Source of the DNA: a bacterium
GTDB taxonomy: Bacteria > UBA8248
Assembly: GCA_965213625.1 (NCBI GenBank)
Contig: CBDBZU010000004.1
Coordinates: forward strand, 3,328,001 to 3,392,000
DNA: 64,000 nucleotides
Reading direction: 5' to 3'
The notes beneath the pieces were generated by a model that worked only from the letters and a program-made list of their open reading frames with translations, did not search any database and was not told where the DNA came from. Below are positions 39,314 through 47,050 of this stretch, piece after piece. Position 1 is the first letter of the stretch; each line of letters begins with the position of its first letter. A program made the translations under genes and the position numbers.

Positions 39314-39375
39314 CGTATGCGACAGTCATGAACGTACGCGAGGATACCGAGGGACCCACATCCCGGGAGCTACGC

Positions 39376-39675
39376 ATGACGACATTCGAAAACCTCAGCC
39401 TCATCGCCGCTTACCTGAACCTCATCGCCCACTATATTGCCCTCGCTCTCATCTACTACGGCATCCGCACCATGGAGAAGGACGAGAAAATCCGCGATGA
39501 GAAGTCAAAACGCAGGCATGCCGAGTTCATGGCTAAGTCCAGTCGCAGGCACAACGAGTTCATGACCGACTCCCACCTCAGGAAAGAGGAGTCTGATCGC
39601 AGGCACGCCGAAGCCCGGAACAGGCAAGAGGAGTCCATGGCCGCCCTGCGCGCGCTCATCGAACGGACCAGGTAA
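39376..39675 (+). CDS. Small single-TM coiled-coil protein, copy 1 (99 aa)
   Basis: SD GGGAG, MTTFE start, TM helix, RRHxE repeats, LRALIERTR end; three paralogs in window. Confidence 0.75.
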   Translation: MTTFENLSLIAAYLNLIAHYIALALIYYGIRTMEKDEKIRDEKSKRRHAEFMAKSSRRHNEFMTDSHLRKEESDRRHAEARNRQEESMAALRALIERTR

Positions 39676-39912
39676 ACGAACCCTCATCCCTCAATCGCGT
39701 CGAACCCTCATCCCTCAATCGGGTTGGACCCACGAAAACCGCTAACGCCTCTTTCCTCACCCTGAGTAGCCGCCATCGGCGGCGTATCGAAGGGCGAGGG
39801 GCATTGAACGCCTCGCACCTGACGAGAGGGCATCCTTCTGACTGGCAAAGACCCCCTTTCAAGGGGCTGTTGAAAAAGCCTGTTTCGTTTGGGATTGACA
39901 TTAGCCTTTGCT

Positions 39913-40152
39913 CGTCATTCCGGCGAAAGCCGGAATCCATTTTCGCCTTTGTCTTTGGCCTTTCGCCCGGACGTTCTCGCTCCCGGCGAAGAAGATACGG
40001 ACGCCGCCACATATATCCGCCTCATCCGTTCCGGATTCAGGCGCGGCAAACGCTCTCTCCTCCGGTAGCGTTTGACCTCCCGCGAGTCGGAATCAAATGC
40101 GAAAACGAAAGCAAAAATCACAAAATGGATTCCGGCTTTCGCCGGAATGACG
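39913..40152. repeat. CGTC-type REP doublet (REPIN-like)
   Basis: 31-bp perfect inverted pair: CGTCATTCCGGCGAAAGCCGGAATCCATTTT at 39913-39943 and its reverse complement at 40122-40152. Confidence 0.88.
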
Positions 40153-40284
40153 GTGGTTTTCCTTCATCAGAGGTCAAACGCGAGTGAGGAGGGAGGGCCA
40201 GACGCGAGTGAGAAGCGAGCGTTTGACCCTTTGTCGGGGTTGTTGAAAAAGCCCTGTTTCGGTAGCTGGCGACATGATGATCCC

Positions 40285-40312
40285 GTAGCGGACAGGCCCC
40301 TGCGCCTGTCCG
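40285..40312 (+). repeat. GTAG-type REP
   Basis: GTAGCGGACAGGCCCCTGCGCCTGTCCG; inverted relative at 47412-47440. Confidence 0.8.
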
Positions 40313-40441
40313 AGGCCTCCGTGCCTGTCCTGATTGCAACCATCCTGCAAAAGGACAACCACGGAGGGCAGGACAACCCCGAGGAGGGAGGGTTTGACCC
40401 CTGAAATGGGAGCTGCTCCAGCACCCCCGAGGCGCGGGGAT

Positions 40442-40471
40442 TTGACGAAGCGCGCGCTCTCTATTTATATT
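40442..40471 (+). promoter_or_regulatory. Putative sigma70 promoter of copy 2
   Basis: TTGACG-N18-TATATT. Confidence 0.55.
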
Positions 40472-40533
40472 CGTATGCAACTGTCATGAACGTACGCGAG
40501 GAAAATGATCGGCCCACATCCCGTGAGCTACGC

Positions 40534-40866
40534 ATGACGACGTTCGAAAACCTCAGCCTCATCGCCGCTTACCTCAACCTCATCGCCTCCTACGGCGGCC
40601 TCGCGCTCATCTACTACGGCATCCGCGTCATGGCCAAAGGCGCTGAATTGCGCGCGGCCGACTCCGAGCACAAGCACGCCGAAACAATGAAAGAGTCTGA
40701 TCGCAGGCACGACGAAGCCATGGCCGAATCCGAACGCAGGCACAACGAGTTCATCGCCGATTCCCGCCGCAGGGATGAGGAGTCGGTCCGCAGGCACGCC
40801 GAATCCATGGCCAGGCACGAGGAGTCCATGGCGGCCCTGCGCGCGCTCATCGAACGGACCAGGTAA
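40534..40866 (+). CDS. Small single-TM coiled-coil protein, copy 2 (110 aa)
   Basis: Paralog of 39376-39675 with an extra 11-aa repeat. Confidence 0.75.
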   Translation: MTTFENLSLIAAYLNLIASYGGLALIYYGIRVMAKGAELRAADSEHKHAETMKESDRRHDEAMAESERRHNEFIADSRRRDEESVRRHAESMARHEESMAALRALIERTR

Positions 40867-41103
40867 ACGAACCCTCATCCCTCAATCGCGTCGAACCCTC
40901 ATCCCTCAATCGGGTTGGACCCACGAAAACCGCTAACGCCTCTTTCCTCACCCTGAGTAGCCGCCATCGGCGGCGTATCGAAGGGCGAGGGGCATTGAAC
41001 GCCTCGCACCTGACGAGAGGGCATCCTTCTGACTGGCAAAGACCCCCTTTCAAGGGGCTGTTGAAAAAGCCTGTTTCGTTTGGGATTGACATTAGCCTTT
41101 GCT

Positions 41104-41343
41104 CGTCATTCCGGCGAAAGCCGGAATCCATTTTCGCCTTTGTCTTTGGCCTTTCGCCTGGACGTTCTCGCTCCCGGCGAAGAAGATACGGACGCCGCCA
41201 CATATATCCGCCTCATCCGTTCCGGATTCAGGCGCGGCAAACGCTCCCTCCTCCGGTCGCGTTTGACCTCCCGCGAGTCGGAATCAAATGCGAAAACGAA
41301 AGCAAGAATCACAAAATGGATTCCGGCTTTCGCCGGAATGACG
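41104..41343. repeat. CGTC-type REP doublet, second copy
   Basis: Same 31-bp inverted pair as 39913-40152. Confidence 0.88.
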
Positions 41344-41515
41344 GTGGTTTTCCTTCATCAGGGGTCAAACCCGACCGAGGAGGGAGGGTTTGACGCGATT
41401 GATGAATGAGCGTTTGACGCGAGTGATATAGGAGCGTTTGATTTATCCCCTCCAGGATACCAATGGCTGGGGGTCAATTCCGACTGAGGAAGGAGGAATT
41501 GAATTATTCTCACAC

Positions 41516-41554
41516 AAAAAGAGGCGGCCCCGTGAAGGGACCGCCTCTTCTTTT
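41516..41554. terminator. Bidirectional intrinsic terminator
   Basis: AAGAGGCGG..CCC/GGG..CCGCCTCTT stem flanked by an A-run and a T-rich run. Confidence 0.75.
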
Positions 41555-41694
41555 CAATCTTGCATTGGGGTTGCCAAGTATTCTTTAATACACGTATAAA
41601 GTCAGCAACACGCGTATCAAAGATGGCTGGGAGTCAAACGCGAGTGAGAAGCGAGTGTTTGATTTATTCCCCCCTACGCCCTATAAAACTGGCT

Positions 41695-41800
41695 GGGGGT
41701 TACTCATTATTCCCTGCCCACACCGAGAGGACTCAAACTCTGTAGCATGGGTAGGTACAATTTGCTCCCGACGATGTAGAGCAACCAATGAGTAACCCCC
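41695..41800. repeat. 106-bp element bounded by 14-bp perfect inverted repeats (MITE-like or 3' UTR stem)
   Basis: GGGGGTTACTCATT (41695-41708) / AATGAGTAACCCCC (41787-41800). Confidence 0.65.
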
Positions 41801-41826
41801 AAAAAGCCTGCCCTTTCTCTTTATAA

Positions 41827-43542
41827 TTACCTGTGCGCCGCAAATGACCCGATGAAGGCGGCGTCTCCCACCGGCGCGCTCTGCTGCGTGGCGTAAAAGG
41901 TTCCCGCCACCGAACCGGGCGCCTGGGGCGAATACGTCGTCGTTATCGTACTTGTCGTCACCGGTGGAGTTTCCGTATTCGTTGTCCTTACCGTTGTTTG
42001 GGACCTTGAGACCCTCGTCATCCCAAAAAACTGGCCCTTCCAGGAGCCGCTGAAGGATTTGCCGTCAACCACGCCAATGGTGGAACCATTATTGAATTTG
42101 TCATTCCCGCTGATATCATCTCCAAGGCTCTGGTCCTGTAATTCGATGCTGCCCACCATTCGTTGCCCACCAGCGACGATGTTCGTGACCGCGCCCACGA
42201 TGCTGCCCGAGCCATCCGAACCTGCACCTGTCGGATTCTGGAACTCGGCGGTGAGCGTAACGTCCGCCGTGAAATAGCTCGTATCGCTTCCCGCGAGGTA
42301 GGCGCCGTTCGCATTCCCCGTGTAAGTGGCTGTCACATCCTGGCCGTCTTTCACAAAAGTGCTGATGGTGTTGAATCCACCAGTATCACCGCATTCTCTG
42401 ATGGTTACGGATGTTGTTCCGGTTCCGGATTCACCACTACCTTCATTACCACTACAGAAGTTTAAATCACTGGCGTTGCTTGTGGGTTGGCCCCCGTAAG
42501 CGAATGCCGTAATAGTGGAAGTACTCAAATTGTCGTTTTCCACTGTAAGCCAGATTCCGGCGATCAGATAGTCGGTATCGGGTTCATAGTCATACCGCTC
42601 GTCGTGAAGCGTATCGGGCATATCTTCCATGACGGTATTTCTTGCCCTGCTCTCTTTAGAGATGTCCGTGTAGGCGTTAACGAAGGTCGAGGTGGTGCCG
42701 TCCACTCCTGTCAGATCGAAGCCACTGGAAAGGCGGCCCGTTCCAGTGAGTGAAGGCGTCGTGCTGTCCGATACGAGACCCTCTATTCGGACCGTCTTCT
42801 GTCCGGTAACCCTGTCTGCGCCGCTCCCGATATCTGCTGGGAATTCGGCACATGGTGCAGTGCAAGCAACACGAGGATTGCCGCTGGACGGCCCGGAGTT
42901 GCCGGCCGCGCCCACGACTATGCTACCGGCTGTCAAGCCCTTAACGGCGTCGGCGAGAAGTTTATTATCTCTCAAGTGCTTGATGAGCCCTGAATTGTTC
43001 GTCAAGGCGGCCTCGTCCGCTTCACGTTGCATGCGGGCGGCAGCAACCGCGTTAACGGCGCTCTGGATGGCTGCCACAGCCGATTGCGCGGATATCAGGT
43101 CGGCGAGCGCCGCTCTCGCATCATCCAGCGCGCTCTCCGCCTCTGCAGGCGTGGTGGCCGCATCCGCCGCGTCTCTCGCATCTTCGATTTCCGTCAATTG
43201 GTTTTGCGCTTCGACTGCATTGGCGAGAGCGCTCGTTATTTGATCCGCCGTGGCGTCGGGGTGAACCTGCACCGCCGCCGCCGCCGCGCGCGCCGCTCCC
43301 TCTCGCGCCCGGGCGTTTGTTACGATGCCGTCGAGTGTATCCTGTGCATCGGCTATCAGTTCCGCATCCGTCGGCCCCGGAGCCATGCAGTCCGGGTACG
43401 TGCCGATCTGGCCCTGCGGGCATTCCATCACCATCTCATCCGCAGTACCGCCGCCACCGCCGCCGCCGCCGCAACCGGAGGCAAATGCCGCAATGCACAC
43501 GACAAGTACCGCCAATCCTGAATATCTGAGCATTTTCATCAC
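41827..43542 (-). CDS. Surface lipoprotein with Ala-rich stalk and TbpB-like C-terminal beta-barrel
   Basis: ASGC lipobox then poly-Gly; ATYTGNANGAY, GSWKGQFFG, GSVAGTF, IGSFAAHR; start GTG 43542 or ATG 43539. Confidence 0.8.
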   Translation of the reverse strand: MMKMLRYSGLAVLVVCIAAFASGCGGGGGGGGTADEMVMECPQGQIGTYPDCMAPGPTDAELIADAQDTLDGIVTNARAREGAARAAAAAVQVHPDATADQITSALANAVEAQNQLTEIEDARDAADAATTPAEAESALDDARAALADLISAQSAVAAIQSAVNAVAAARMQREADEAALTNNSGLIKHLRDNKLLADAVKGLTAGSIVVGAAGNSGPSSGNPRVACTAPCAEFPADIGSGADRVTGQKTVRIEGLVSDSTTPSLTGTGRLSSGFDLTGVDGTTSTFVNAYTDISKESRARNTVMEDMPDTLHDERYDYEPDTDYLIAGIWLTVENDNLSTSTITAFAYGGQPTSNASDLNFCSGNEGSGESGTGTTSVTIRECGDTGGFNTISTFVKDGQDVTATYTGNANGAYLAGSDTSYFTADVTLTAEFQNPTGAGSDGSGSIVGAVTNIVAGGQRMVGSIELQDQSLGDDISGNDKFNNGSTIGVVDGKSFSGSWKGQFFGMTRVSRSQTTVRTTNTETPPVTTSTITTTYSPQAPGSVAGTFYATQQSAPVGDAAFIGSFAAHR

Positions 43543-43681: not shown

Positions 43682-45400
43682 TTACTGCCTGTGTGCGCCG
43701 AACGCGCCGATCAGACTCATCTTGTTGTCCGCGCTGGATGCGCCGAATGTGCCGGCAACACCCGTCGGGTGCGTGGTGTTTGCAGCGCTGCCCGAGCCGT
43801 TCGGACCGTATAGCTGACCGCCCCAGTTCCCCCTGAGGCCGGTTCCACCGAGAACGCCGTCCGTGGTGCCTGTGAACGATCCAGCTTCGCCTGCTGTATC
43901 AGCCAAGGTGGCTTTCACCAGATTCAGGGAGCCGTCAACAGCCTGTCCGGCGGCCCTGATACCCGAGATGCTTCCCGAGATTGACCCCAGCGTGGCGTTC
44001 GTTGCGCTGAGGAAGTCGACCTCGAGCGAGGCGTCCGCGTCGAAGTACTGGACCATGCCGCCCGCTGAATAGAGGCCGGTGGCGCTTCCTTCATACGAGG
44101 CATTACCCGTGATAGCTACATTCACCGTGTACGTGTCACTGCCGTACGCGAAGGCGCCTGCCTGGGCGGGATCAATTGCTATGGCAGTAGTACCATCGGC
44201 AGCTATCAGGGAGTCCCTGACGGAAGCGGTTACCCACATACCCCAAGCCATGTAGTCTTCGTCGTGACCGGGATCTTTTCCTGTGGCGGTTCGGTATGTG
44301 TATCCAGTATTCTCTACAATTTTCCCGTCTTCATCCACGCTTATAGAACATGGTGTATTGGTGGGGTCTGCACAGTAAATTTGAGCTGGAACCGCGACAT
44401 TGTTGTCAGCGGGATCCAAATTGAGCAACACTTCAAAATTGCTGCCATCGCTCGGGATATCACCCGTCAATACAGCAGACATTTCTATTGCGTCTGTTAT
44501 TTCAATTCCTGTTCCCGTATATATGTTCTTTTCAACCGACGCTTCGATGTCCGTGGTGACGACGAGATGAGTTTTCGTATTCTCGCTTGTTGTGCGAACC
44601 AAATCTGCGCCTTCGTTTCCTTTGATATGGAAACGTGAAGGCTCTTCACCCGTCCGCATTCGATTTACCTCAGCAGCACCGCCATGGTTTATCCCGAATG
44701 CTGATCCACCCGCTTTATGCGCCACGAATGGAACGTCTGTTATTCCACCACTTATCGTAACAGTGGCAGTGGTATCACTGCTTCCGCCCTGGTTGGTAAG
44801 ACCATCAGTAGTAGCAGCCACACCGGCAGCTGCAATCGCCGACCCTACGGTAGCCGAATTTGTCATTGCCTTTAGCGGATCCGAGCCATCCAGCTCGGCA
44901 TTTTCGATGTCGTCGCCGTTGAGCAGCTTGTTCGACAGGTTGATAAGCACCAGGCTGCTCATGCCAGCTGCTTCCATCGCCTTGTCGCGGGCCGTCTCGG
45001 CCGCCATCTGGTGACCCATTGCGTCTGCAGAAGTCGTGGCCGCCTGCGCCGCCGTGTTGGCGTCACCAGCCATGCTCGCGTAACCGTACGCGTTGCCGGC
45101 CGCCACGGGGTCAACCGCGCCGCCCACGGCCGCCATCGCAGCCGCTGCCGCCATCGCAGCCGCGTCCTGCGCGCCGCTCAGGGCAGCTTCTTCGGCAAGG
45201 TCAGCGGCGGAGGTGCAGGAACCGTCCGCGTTATACCGGCCGCCGGCATCCATGCATTCCGCCTGCGGGTCAGGCATCGGCATCGGCATCTCTTCTTCCA
45301 TCTCAGCCGTTCCGCCGCCGCCGCCGCAACCAGCCAGCGTCAGCGCGAAGGCCGCCGCCAGCATGAATGAAAAGATTTTATTTCTGTTGAGTTTCATCAC
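43682..45400 (-). CDS. Surface lipoprotein with Ala-rich stalk and TbpB-like C-terminal beta-barrel (paralog)
   Basis: LAGC lipobox then poly-Gly; ASYEGSATGLY, GNWGGQLYG, GVAGTFGA, IGAFGAHR; SD AGGAGGA. Confidence 0.82.
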   Translation of the reverse strand: MMKLNRNKIFSFMLAAAFALTLAGCGGGGGTAEMEEEMPMPMPDPQAECMDAGGRYNADGSCTSAADLAEEAALSGAQDAAAMAAAAAMAAVGGAVDPVAAGNAYGYASMAGDANTAAQAATTSADAMGHQMAAETARDKAMEAAGMSSLVLINLSNKLLNGDDIENAELDGSDPLKAMTNSATVGSAIAAAGVAATTDGLTNQGGSSDTTATVTISGGITDVPFVAHKAGGSAFGINHGGAAEVNRMRTGEEPSRFHIKGNEGADLVRTTSENTKTHLVVTTDIEASVEKNIYTGTGIEITDAIEMSAVLTGDIPSDGSNFEVLLNLDPADNNVAVPAQIYCADPTNTPCSISVDEDGKIVENTGYTYRTATGKDPGHDEDYMAWGMWVTASVRDSLIAADGTTAIAIDPAQAGAFAYGSDTYTVNVAITGNASYEGSATGLYSAGGMVQYFDADASLEVDFLSATNATLGSISGSISGIRAAGQAVDGSLNLVKATLADTAGEAGSFTGTTDGVLGGTGLRGNWGGQLYGPNGSGSAANTTHPTGVAGTFGASSADNKMSLIGAFGAHRQ

Positions 45401-45402
45401 TT

Positions 45403-45938
45403 TTGAGTCCTCCTAGTCTCGTGATATTAAAGAGCTTTGCATCTAACAAAACCTGAAATGTTCGGATTAGACCTCCTTTCTTTGACTTTCCGACTTTCTA
45501 TCCTTTCCGTTATCGGGCTTATTTCGTTTCATCGTTTCATCGAACCGGAACCGGAGGCGCGGCCGCCGGCCCGGACTTACGCGTCCGGGCCGGTAGCCGG
45601 CATATCCACGAGACTAGCGTGGGAGTCTTTTCGGGAATCATCATGGTTTGAGTCCTCTAGCCTCGCGATATAAAAACGTCTCCGGCCCGAGCCGGGTATT
45701 CCATATTCCAGGTGGAACGATTCACGAGACTGTAGAGGGATTTGCTGCGTGGTGCATCCTGGGTTGAGTCCTCTAGCCTCGTGATTTGCTGCTTCCCGGC
45801 TCTCGCCGGGCTTACCGCTTTCCTGCGCCGGGGCCTCCGCTTTTACGAACGCGAAACTCCGGGACATTTCATCGATTCACGAGACTGGAGAGGGTCTTAC
45901 GGCGTGGTGCATCGTGGGTTGAGTCCTCTAGCCTCGTG
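45403..45938 (-). repeat. Array of three 61-bp imperfect hairpin repeats plus a half-copy over the lipoprotein RBS
   Basis: Units 45607-45667, 45723-45783 and 45878-45938 each read CACGAGACT...TTGAGTCCTCTAGCCTCG(T/C)G; half-copy TTGAGTCCTCCTAGTCTCGTG at 45403-45423. Confidence 0.88.
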
Positions 45939-46120
45939 TTTGTTGCTGCTGAAGCCTGGAATCTTTCCGGGTCGTCGTCTTCCGGGCTTCGTCAAGCCAT
46001 CTGCGATTGCAGGCTGCTCCCCTTGGCTCCCGCTCTATGCGTCCTTCACGAACGAAGTCCGCGCTGCGTTCTGCGGGCGGCCCCTGGGCTGCTGCTCCCG
46101 TGTATTACTTGACATATACG

Positions 46121-46150
46121 ATAGTGCGTCAAATTTTCCGGTTTTGTCAA
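46121..46150 (-). promoter_or_regulatory. Possible sigma70 promoter driving the hairpin-array leader and lipoprotein genes
   Basis: Minus strand TTGACA-N18-CACTAT in an AT-richer patch; CTTGACA/TGTCAAG inverted pair across 46108-46151. Confidence 0.35.
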
Positions 46151-46279
46151 GCCTTTATTTGAACTTGCGCGCGACTTGCGAATCGCGGCGGGCGGTTCAA
46201 AGATGTTGCGATTATGAAGCATCGGGGGATGGGGGTCAAACGCCTACCGGATGAAGGAGGGTTTGACGCGAGGGGGTGT

Positions 46280-46374
46280 GTAGCCGGACAGGCCCCCGTG
46301 CTTGTCCGGCCCTCCTCGGGGTTGTCCTGATTGACGCGAGGGGGTGTAGTCGAACAAGCCCCCGTGCTTGTTCG
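46280..46374 (+). repeat. Two GTAG-type REPs downstream of RAYT
   Basis: GTAGCCGGACAGGCCCCCGTGCTTGTCCGGC and GTAGTCGAACAAGCCCCCGTGCTTGTTCG, both preceded by TTGACGCGAGGGGGTGT. Confidence 0.8.
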
Positions 46375-46422
46375 GGGTCGCGACCTGTGCGCATTCTCTT
46401 TTTTTGAATGCAGGGGCCATCC

Positions 46423-46980
46423 TTACAGGCGGGGTACGGTGTTGTACCTGTCGAACGCCCATTTCAAGGGATTGTTGCGGATGTATTCCCGGATGCTGTT
46501 CAGGTTTTCTTCGTTGCGGATAATGTGGTCGTAAAACGAGCGTTGCCACCCGAAAGCATTCTTGCTCCGGCGTTTTCGCACTTTTCGGGTTACGGATGAT
46601 TTGAACCCCTGAATGATTTTCGGCAAAACCATTTTCGAGCGGTCGATGTTTTGTCGTTTCGATTGTAGGTGGCGACCCCTCCTCGGGGTCGCCCCTCACA
46701 TATATGCGTCCCGCTCGGGGTTGTTATCCCCAACGATAATCACGATCCCGTGTAAATGATTCGGCATCACGACGTAATCATCGATGTCCGTATTCGGAAA
46801 ATGACCGGGGATTGCCAGCCAACATTCTTGCGCAATCATTCCGGTTGCATTCAACCGCATTTTCTCGTCCAAGACTTCGCCGAAGCATTGGGTGTGATTC
46901 CGCGTGCAGATTGTCACGAAATAGTATCCTTGCCGAGAATAATCACGTTCTTGAAGTCTGTTTTCCTTTCTGGATTTCAT
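46423..46980 (-). pseudogene. REP-associated tyrosine transposase (RAYT, Y1 HUH) with an in-frame TGA at 46696-46698
   Basis: DYS..GYYFVTICT, VMPNHLHGI (HUH), WQRSFYDHIIR...EYIRNNP; both halves in the same frame; flanked by REPs. Confidence 0.85.
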
Positions 46981-47050
46981 TTCTCAAGGATCATCCTTTC
47001 CCATCAACTCGTTCGGCGGCACAACCGTTTGCATCATCAAATAGCAACTT

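Follow-up and report, generated by a model that had tools for sequence, protein, structure and literature searches.

In a bacterium of the GTDB lineage UBA8248 (assembly GCA_965213625.1), the leader ahead of a gene for a TbpB-like surface lipoprotein appears to carry three tandem imitations of the gene's own translation initiation region (TIR), each folded back onto a sequence complementary to it. The array lies at positions 45403-45938 of a 64,000-nucleotide (nt) stretch, here called the window (contig CBDBZU010000004.1, positions 3,328,001 to 3,392,000), and is read from the minus strand. The leader was found in 12 species, and sequences complementary to the TIR recur in a structured element behind this and other lipoprotein genes of the genus. 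The reading that we favour, tentatively, is one of competition between the real TIR and its mimics for anti-TIR sequences that lie in cis and in this 3' element. The components of the array and the gene that it precedes are the following.

45938-45878, minus strand: unit 1, a TIR mimic (left arm, Shine-Dalgarno (SD)-like AGAGG, GACTCAA) followed by an ATG, an 11-codon open reading frame (ORF) and, on the right, an anti-TIR arm with TGA at its end
45783-45723, minus strand: unit 2, built like unit 1
45667-45607, minus strand: unit 3 (type B), whose right arm ends in TGG without a stop, so that its ORF runs to 35 amino acids (aa)
45423-45395, minus strand: fourth left arm, the real TIR, CACGAGAC-TAGGAGG-ACTCAAAA-GTG-ATG, at the start of a 572-aa ORF
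45400-43682, minus strand: lipoprotein gene 1, 572 aa, with lipobox LAGC and a C-terminal relative of the TbpB beta-barrel

The three 61-nt units start 155 and 116 nt apart, which leaves spacers of 94 and 55 nt, and both this spacing and the minus-strand layout are as an initial annotation of the window had placed them. Read as RNA, a unit runs from an upstream box, (AU)CACGAGG, through CUAG, the SD-like AGAGG, ACUCAA, 3-6 nt, an AUG and about 10 codons to a right arm that reads ...CC(A/U)GUCUCGUG. The 18-nt core of the left arm occurred three times in the window where 0.03 occurrences were expected, three matches being found in none of 100 shuffles, and the folding of units 1, 2 and 3, computed like all folding reported here at 37 °C, was better than that of shuffled sequences (z = -3.45, -2.60 and -2.15, respectively). 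The fourth left arm, which the initial annotation had located at the true gene start without a right arm of its own, was indeed found there, and the right arm of unit 3 (45617-45607) is 100% complementary to it (45423-45413) over 11 nt. Fuzzy and profile searches of the 4.15-Mb genome gave no second full unit. The units are not distributed like a dispersed repeat (repetitive extragenic palindrome or miniature inverted-repeat transposable element), given that 11 of the 12 unit-bearing genomes hold them at one locus only, the exception being a species with three extra, diverged single copies. In 10 of the 11 species that have a type-B unit its SD-like part is a full GGAGG. Each left arm also contains a GANTC site; the flanking GAATC sites are not conserved.

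Of 22 other species of the genus, 11 have a match to the 781-nt stretch 45380-46160; in 18 genomes outside the genus there was none. With this genome included, the 12 loci comprise 38 units (two in one species, three in eight and four in three), a variation in unit number for which the initial annotation had proposed to search related loci. A covariance model of the unit, run over 51 genomes of the class, matched in those 12 genomes only; the array was matched neither in 28 genomes of other genera of the class nor in 7 of other classes. Two further metagenome contigs, with three units each and no new arm variants, were retrieved by an exact-pattern scan. The orientation was identical in the 12 species and in both contigs, the fourth arm being followed by the signal peptide, and the 21-nt core of the fourth arm was identical in 12/12 leader-bearing species and present in one copy per genome.

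The identity of the leader to the window was 77-82% in 10 of 11 comparisons and 62% in the eleventh, which may be set beside 79-95% for the signal-peptide codons (45400-45311) and 80-89% for the syntenic neighbouring carbamate kinase gene. The coding part for the mature lipoprotein (45310-43682) was 41-79% identical or could not be aligned, and the DNA upstream of the promoter was 40-47% identical, which amounts to unaligned sequence. Because the leader aligns while the mature part and the upstream DNA do not, the leader is taken to be under purifying selection, and the exposed part of the lipoprotein turns over fast. Comparison of the leader-bearing species revealed no long ORF common to their leaders. 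In Logan contigs from four DNA runs of one study, from which the window may itself derive, the stretch was unchanged, with no joints or indels, although rare inversion or unit-number variants would be invisible in contigs. In the same four runs, 45302-45362 matched several other contigs at 85-95%, and these contigs diverged on both sides.

Further features of the leader were located upstream of, between and behind the units.

46150-46121, minus strand: candidate sigma-70 promoter P2, with TTGACA (46150-46145), an 18-nt spacer and CACTAT (46126-46121)
about 46176-46161, minus strand: palindrome with the sequence TTGCGCGCAA in the majority of species, some 19 nt before the -35 hexamer
46113-45940, minus strand: leader 5' domain, with a long-range closing helix, inner helices and a GCCCGG/CCGGGC hairpin
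45809-45795, minus strand: spacer hairpin CCGGC-GNRA-GCCGG between units 1 and 2
45599-45560, minus strand: GC-rich hairpin of at least 11 pairs directly after unit 3
45480-45471, minus strand: strong, perfectly conserved SD-like AAGGAGG within a run rich in A and G, some 55 nt before the real SD

The leader would be about 715 nt long, counted from the conserved promoter near 46150. Both P2 hexamers are invariant in 12 species and sequence conservation begins at P2, where the transcript probably starts. The palindrome is conserved in 12 species and duplicated in one, and is a candidate operator for a dimeric regulator. Another promoter, P1 (46239-46211), was discounted, its -35 sitting in a repeat (…GTCAAAC…GTTTGACCCC…) that recurs downstream of the operon; short repeats with inverted GTCAAAC/GTTTGAC ends are present on both sides of the operon, at 46230-46300, 41360-41480 and 41640-41670.

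The strand 46113-46108 of the closing helix lies 8 nt after the -10 hexamer, pairs with a strand about 135 nt downstream and covaries with it (GUCAAG/CUUGAC versus GCCGAG/CUCGGC). When the 5' domain was examined in 11 species by RNAalifold and pair counts, 93.7% of cells were paired (0/500 shuffles as high), six pairs had changed on both sides (1/500) and the covariation score was 0.233 as compared with 0.169 in shuffles (0/500). On four of five measures the observed value was equalled by 0-1 of 500 shuffles; the fifth, the occurrence of further pair types, was not above the shuffles (349/500). With the partners slid against each other only 31-46% of cells were paired. The structure was taken from the same alignment on which it is scored and is to that extent somewhat favoured. 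The conserved, covarying structure that would mark a structured cis-regulatory leader thus appears to be present in the 5' domain, and not in the unit stems described below.

The initial annotation had called the spacers unrelated, which proved wrong, as they are conserved hairpins. In the one between units 1 and 2 the stem is invariant and the loop is of the GNRA type (GAGA, GAAA, GCGA or GGGA) in 11/12 species; the hairpin after unit 3 combines a conserved stem with a 6-nt loop whose sequence, free of indels, differs from species to species. No start codon stands at a usable distance from the AAGGAGG at 45480-45471. A terminator-like site at 45695-45682 was set aside, two such sites having been found against 1.9 ± 1.7 in shuffles, which is not above expectation. 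Rfam gave 0 matches at the gathering threshold in the whole window, which agrees with the initial annotation in that no known family was recognised, and permissive scans of 44500-47000 and 41300-42000 gave chance-level matches only (E ≥ 0.085).

Across 36 distinct units, 85.9% of the cells in the unit stems were paired as compared with 86.3% in shuffles, the covariation was 0.094 versus 0.093, and RNAalifold detected no pair changed on both sides; this test is blind because the arms are too conserved and leave almost no variation. Of what the initial annotation had expected from homologous loci, the arms were kept and compensatory changes in the unit stems were not seen. The changes that did occur were one-sided, from A-U to G-U or from G-U to G-C, with a few breaking changes as well, and the G-U pair 16/67 was present in 32/36 distinct units from the 12 species. 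A minus-strand RNA had been favoured on the basis of G-U pairs in the outer stems, and the one-sided changes are in fact compatible with G-U pairing on the minus strand only; with some of the changes breaking pairs, this is a weak argument as to strand and no proof of pairing. That the array is a minus-strand RNA feature of the lipoprotein leader is nevertheless supported by the sequence comparisons.

The mini-ORFs of units 1 and 2 encode 11 aa and end at the TGA inside the right arm. An ATG is found 9-12 nt after the SD-like GG in 31/38 units. Among the 20 type-A units with an ATG, 18 encode peptides of 11-12 aa of the type M(M)xHAxNPSPVS that stop in the right arm, and two are frame-shifted. 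In one unit the stop was preserved through a TGA-to-TAA change. In the 11 type-B units, which are those nearest to the gene, the start is always present and the ORF extends over 33-47 aa with a frame and an end point that vary. Frame-breaking indels were seen in 3/6 start-less 'GGCG' units and in 2/31 units with a start, and the entropy of the loop codons was 0.38, 0.35 and 0.54 for the three positions, i.e. slightly higher at the third. Translation of the mini-ORFs is plausible; given the seven start-less and two frame-shifted units, it is therefore not essential to every unit.

The second set of sequences complementary to the TIR was found behind the operon.

43539-41827, minus strand: lipoprotein gene 2, a paralogue of gene 1, whose start region lacks the arm motif
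41799-41696, minus strand: 3' element, 104 nt, about 30 nt after the stop of gene 2, with a 14-bp closing stem and two hairpins (model score 89 bits)
41554-41515, minus strand: strong intrinsic terminator, a GC stem followed by a U run, which is the likely end of the two-gene operon

The element model found 2-16 copies per genome in 17/23 genomes of the genus (this one counted) and one weak match outside the genus; the element has no match in Rfam. Further copies in this genome lie at G000 C4:1938832, 1944847, 1949142, 1961299, 1926749 and 790924. Of 29 copies examined, 27 were situated 33-332 nt behind a TbpB-like C-terminus and on the same strand. Two subtypes differ in the loop of hairpin 1. 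Type I consists of the dispersed copies; type II is represented by near-identical copies that stand behind the leader-bearing operon in 11/12 species, the contig of the twelfth breaking off 200 nt after the start. Among 24 distinct copies taken from the sense strand, compensatory changes were observed in 11/35 pairs and 96.7% of cells pair, the count having been made without opposite-strand rows, which inflate covariation. An integron attC site was considered for the element and rejected by eye against the attC core motif.

The 14-mer GAGUUUGAGUCCUC, which consists of the hairpin-2 loop UUUGAGUC and the adjacent stem, was invariant in 30/30 copies of the element. All four left arms contain a GAGGACTCAA(A) part to which the loop and its 3' stem strand are complementary, and the complementarity of the hairpin-2 region to GAGGACUCAA(A) covers 10-13 nt in each of the four. 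In type I, the hairpin-1 loop (C/U)CUCGUGAU(A) and the upstream box AUCACGAG(G/A) are complementary to each other over 9 nt, and the core of this loop is common to the right arms of the units. Between type I and the leader the longest match was 12 nt (3/1000 shuffles as long) and the two best matches, located at separate sites of the element, summed to 21 nt (0/1000); for type II the corresponding values were 13 nt (1/1000) and 19 nt (6/1000). The predicted cost of opening the loops of the element is 0-1.6 kcal/mol and that of opening the targets in the context of the fourth arm 2.9-3.8 kcal/mol, with predicted duplex energies of -8.5 to -16.3 kcal/mol. In the units it would take 12-14 kcal/mol to free the upstream box from the stem that locks it, and 1.4-3.2 kcal/mol to open the accessible GACUCAA.

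The regulated genes are TbpB-like (Slam-type) surface lipoproteins to judge by sequence, the C-terminal TbpB_B_D barrel being supported only through a relative that carries PF01298: residues 380-571 of lipoprotein 1 are 40% identical (E 6e-24) to a protein stretch with this domain (51 bits, above the cut-off), and sequence searches of Pfam, NCBIfam and PDB gave no direct match for lipoprotein 1 itself. Its Atlas neighbours, which are Pseudomonadota, carry the TbpB-like family too, and one relative is filed under a Nitrospinae label. The single Slam gene of the genome is located 1.9 Mb from the array, and the best weak match of the unit profile elsewhere in the genome was found upstream of the lipoprotein gene that directly precedes it. 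The start of this Slam-linked gene (G000 C4:1463455-1463720) has the build of the fourth arm (AUCACGA, 6 nt, GGAGGACUCAA, 3 nt, AUG), and 215 nt upstream there is a decayed copy of this start and its first codons that is 70% identical to unit 3 over 54 nt. By eye, the type II hairpin-1 loop, which contains CAUCGUCG, looks complementary over 8 nt to CGACGAUG in the Slam-linked start, a match that may be due to chance. The sequence GGAGGACTCA occurs at 11 places in the genome, of which 7 are lipoprotein starts or pseudo-starts. One species, the most divergent of those with the leader, has three further single units, diverged but nearly identical to one another (G014 C1:3227167, 232836 and 2488092), each 20-90 nt ahead of another lipoprotein gene; in two of them the mini-ORF starts with GTG and the in-frame TGA is kept. 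Two apparent compensatory stem changes in these three units were discounted, since independent folds give other registers (z 0.5-0.8). Unit-like copies are thus present before the Slam-linked gene and before other lipoprotein genes, and the motif is therefore tied to the gene family; as far as sequence can tell, the units are duplicated gene starts (TIR and first codons) of this lipoprotein family. At G000 C4:1.92-1.96 Mb lipoprotein paralogue cassettes alternate in orientation, with near-identical starts (four copies) and a type-I 3' element after each, and this cluster looks like the outcome of recent duplication, conversion or inversion.

In minimum-energy folds of the whole leader the fourth arm paired with one right arm and one mimic was left unpaired in 11/12 species, and in the twelfth the ensemble likewise showed pairing between the fourth arm and a right arm. 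The right arm involved was R1, R2 or R3 (that of unit 1, 2 or 3) depending on the species, the other units being self-paired. Forcing the TIR open cost 10.4-16.2 kcal/mol, with all units self-paired in 7/12 species; when the leader was cut back through the last right arm, opening still cost 7.6-11.3 kcal/mol, and the right arms add about 0-7 kcal/mol to the cost. The duplex of a right arm with the fourth arm and the duplex with its own left arm were about 0.6 kcal/mol apart. Of the earlier proposal of alternative pairing, the choice of a right arm between its own left arm and the real start region was borne out by the folds in 11/12 species; covariation of the unit stems was absent. According to the folding models the alternative pairing is possible and finely balanced, and a start site that is shut at rest is not supported by the data.

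In the reading that we tentatively favour, each unit would be an old duplicate of the gene's TIR (upstream box, Shine-Dalgarno sequence, GACUCAA box, start and a few codons) that folds onto an anti-TIR arm. In a leader with n units, n+1 TIR-type sequences (here the mimics L1-L3 and the real TIR) would compete for a limited set of anti-TIR sequences, which would comprise the right arms in cis, n in number, together with both loops of the 3' untranslated region (UTR) element of this and other lipoprotein mRNAs. The TIR copy that is left unpaired would be open to ribosomes, the mimics might act as a buffer or sponge that draws anti-TIR RNA away from the real start, and translation of the mini-ORFs, ending inside the right arms, could shift the balance. 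Such a competition fits the arithmetic of n+1 versus n and the fact that both boxes are invariant, and it agrees with a 3' element that is family-wide and with the failure to find Hfq or CsrA. In this genome, which is 96.6% complete, the CsrA gene (PF02599) was not found, a search whose control was detected in 3/14 genomes, and neither was the Hfq gene (PF17209), for which the control was detected in 5/14 genomes; the result fits loop-loop pairing without a chaperone. A CsrA sponge of the CsrB/RsmZ type was considered and abandoned, both because no CsrA gene was found and because the GG of AGAGGA is paired in the stem and not exposed in a loop. That these pairings form in the cell, and that they affect translation, is inferred.

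Several observations weigh against this reading. Opening the TIR costs 8.5 kcal/mol, which is below 149 of 150 control starts (mean 17.5 ± 4.9), the controls being other SD-preceded starts of the same GC-rich genome, and with the full leader the cost is 9.6 kcal/mol, below all of the 25 controls that were folded in long context. A ribosome-binding site (RBS) blocked at equilibrium, for which the costs of 10-16 kcal/mol had looked supportive, lost that support in view of the truncated leader (7.6-11.3) and of these genome controls (17.5). As the unit stems lack covariation, the arms could be conserved for a purpose other than pairing, and the 7/38 units without a start codon and the two that are frame-shifted all keep both arms. 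Nested co-folding of the element with the TIR or with the units gave 0 intermolecular pairs, kissing loops being beyond the method. In reverse complement the element is similar to the unit-3 region, and the complementarity of element and TIR could partly stem from common descent by inverted duplication. Finally, the transcription start, any processing and even the co-transcription of leader and gene are presumed.

The mini-ORFs suggest a different mechanism, leader-peptide attenuation, in which a ribosome that pauses or terminates at the proline-rich end (N/K-P-S/P-P-V-S-stop) would cover the right arm and thereby decide its pairing with the TIR. We regard this as unlikely, if not to be dismissed lightly. 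It would account for the ORF layout of the units (31/38 units with an ATG, 18/20 type-A ORFs stopping inside the right arm), for the stop kept through TGA-to-TAA, for the two diverged copies that keep a GTG start and an in-frame TGA, for the higher share of frame-breaking indels in units without a start (3/6 versus 2/31) and for the slightly greater variability of third codon positions (0.54 versus 0.38 and 0.35). Yet both arms are kept in the seven units that have no start and the two that are frame-shifted, the substitutions are mostly non-synonymous, the SD-like sequence is buried in the stem, and the frame and end point of the type-B ORF differ between species; the conservation of the peptide may moreover reflect a constraint at the RNA level. 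Nor is the main SD predicted to be sequestered at rest as it is in an attenuation leader, its opening costing 8.5-9.6 kcal/mol. The domino-like switch of the initial annotation, in which each right arm pairs with its own or the next downstream left arm until the state reaches the real RBS, shares the alternative pairing and appears to us very unlikely. The spacer hairpins would bring R(n) beside L(n+1), and R3 and the fourth arm, which form 11 perfect pairs, are joined in the consensus fold of the last segment. What the full-leader folds lack is the chain, since the fourth arm captures R1, R2 or R3 according to species instead of pairing from neighbour to neighbour; the registers differ by 0.6 kcal/mol only, the unit stems do not covary and the effect on TIR opening is small.

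An RNA-binding protein, a translational repressor or other, might recognise the TIR motif, with the mimics as extra cooperative or titrating sites. The invariance of both left-arm boxes far beyond what an SD needs speaks for this, as does the position of the start motif GGAGGACTCA at lipoprotein starts or pseudo-starts in 7 of its 11 occurrences, but there is no candidate protein, genes for CsrA and Hfq were not found, and the conserved right arms and the complementary loops of the 3' element would be left unexplained; we consider it distinctly improbable. At the level of DNA, the left arms and the inverted copy in the 3' element could serve phase or antigenic variation of the surface protein, either as operators or as sites of recombination or inversion. 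A 13-bp perfect inverted repeat is formed by unit 3 and the 3' element, with 11-bp inverted copies for the other three left arms, so that the genes are flanked; conserved flanks enclose a hypervariable mature protein, cassettes of paralogues alternate in orientation at C4:1.92-1.96 Mb, and unit number differs between species. Against such sites, the orientation is the same at all 14 loci (12 species and two metagenome contigs), the contigs of four runs show no joints, though rare variants are invisible in contigs, unit positions are orthologous and not shuffled, and covariation that includes G-U pairs in the 3' element and the 5' domain points to RNA, which leaves this explanation with little likelihood. 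The units may also have no function and be mere scars that repeated duplication or gene conversion has left at the conserved 5' ends of cassettes, as their derivation from the gene start, the similar scar at the Slam-linked locus and the loss of start codon or frame in some of them would suggest. It is hard to see, however, why scars should have arms that are invariant, or nearly so, in 12 species whose unconstrained flanks do not align, or lie in a leader about as conserved as the adjacent enzyme gene, and this is the explanation to which we give the least credence.

Attenuation of the erm and cat type depends on a short leader ORF, equipped with an SD, that overlaps an arm of the alternative hairpins by which the main SD is gated; such a leader is single, about 100-150 nt long and has a known stalling signal. 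Here, 2-4 tandem units extend over about 330-630 nt of a 620-970-nt leader, some lack a start, and the main start is predicted to be open. ROSE and fourU thermometers, for which Rfam has models, possess several 5'-UTR hairpins with a paired SD-like sequence, and their real SD lies in the last of these. In the present leader the real SD lacks a partner arm, the length is about 5-10 times greater and there is no Rfam match. OxyS, an Hfq-associated small RNA that acts in trans, contacts two sites at the translation start of fhlA through two loops. The likeness lies in a structured RNA with two loops that match two sites in a start region, here as a predicted pairing, and the difference in that the two-loop element belongs to the 3' UTR of the same gene family and no Hfq gene was found.

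Among documented systems, the closest for genes of this class is the fHbp thermosensor of the meningococcus, an mRNA with two redundant anti-RBS sequences that control its own translation start (Loh et al. 2016, PMC4999090). It too concerns a Slam-type surface lipoprotein gene; there the anti-RBS sequences lie inside the coding region and no RBS mimics are described, whereas here they lie upstream, each pre-paired to a mimic, with a further pair in the 3' element. SroC is an mRNA-derived target-mimic sponge that soaks up the antisense regulator GcvB and so mediates cross-talk between mRNAs (PMC4474525). Such sponges are known as separate RNAs or processed fragments, whereas the present mimics are in tandem within the target's own leader and each is masked by its own arm. 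Hairpins with anti-SD sequences, leader ORFs and RNA sponges are thus all known; attenuation leaders, the OxyS-fhlA contact and sponges each share one feature with the array, and none of the systems compared combines tandem self-masked mimics with a complementary 3' element. A full-text literature search, covering articles and not their supplements, returned no leader with several masked copies of its own start, nor one accompanied by a matching family-wide 3' element.

Beyond the operon, a tandem duplication of about 1.19 kb occupies 39328-41400. Its plus strand has two related ORFs of 115 and 126 aa (MNVRE...), for which Pfam returned nothing, and its minus strand two identical ORFs of 118 aa (39656-40012 and 40847-41203).

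If the competition between mimics and real TIR is functional, the amount of surface lipoprotein made would be set by a mechanism of new design, and the case would exemplify mRNA cross-talk that is independent of a chaperone. On a wider view, which we put forward as improbable, the hypervariable surface-lipoprotein mRNAs of the genus may regulate one another by RNA alone: a two-loop antisense module in the 3' UTR, directed at the start motif common to the family and acting through 5'-3' contact in cis or in trans after processing, would be combined with a self-masked sponge leader that shields the operon from its repression, and a hierarchy or mutual exclusion of paralogous antigens could arise without Hfq or CsrA. 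Whatever the mechanism, the leader 5' domain and the 3' element are two new RNA motifs, supported by covariation, that can be used in annotation, and they belong to a family in which the lipoproteins evolve very fast while the 5' and 3' control regions stay fixed.

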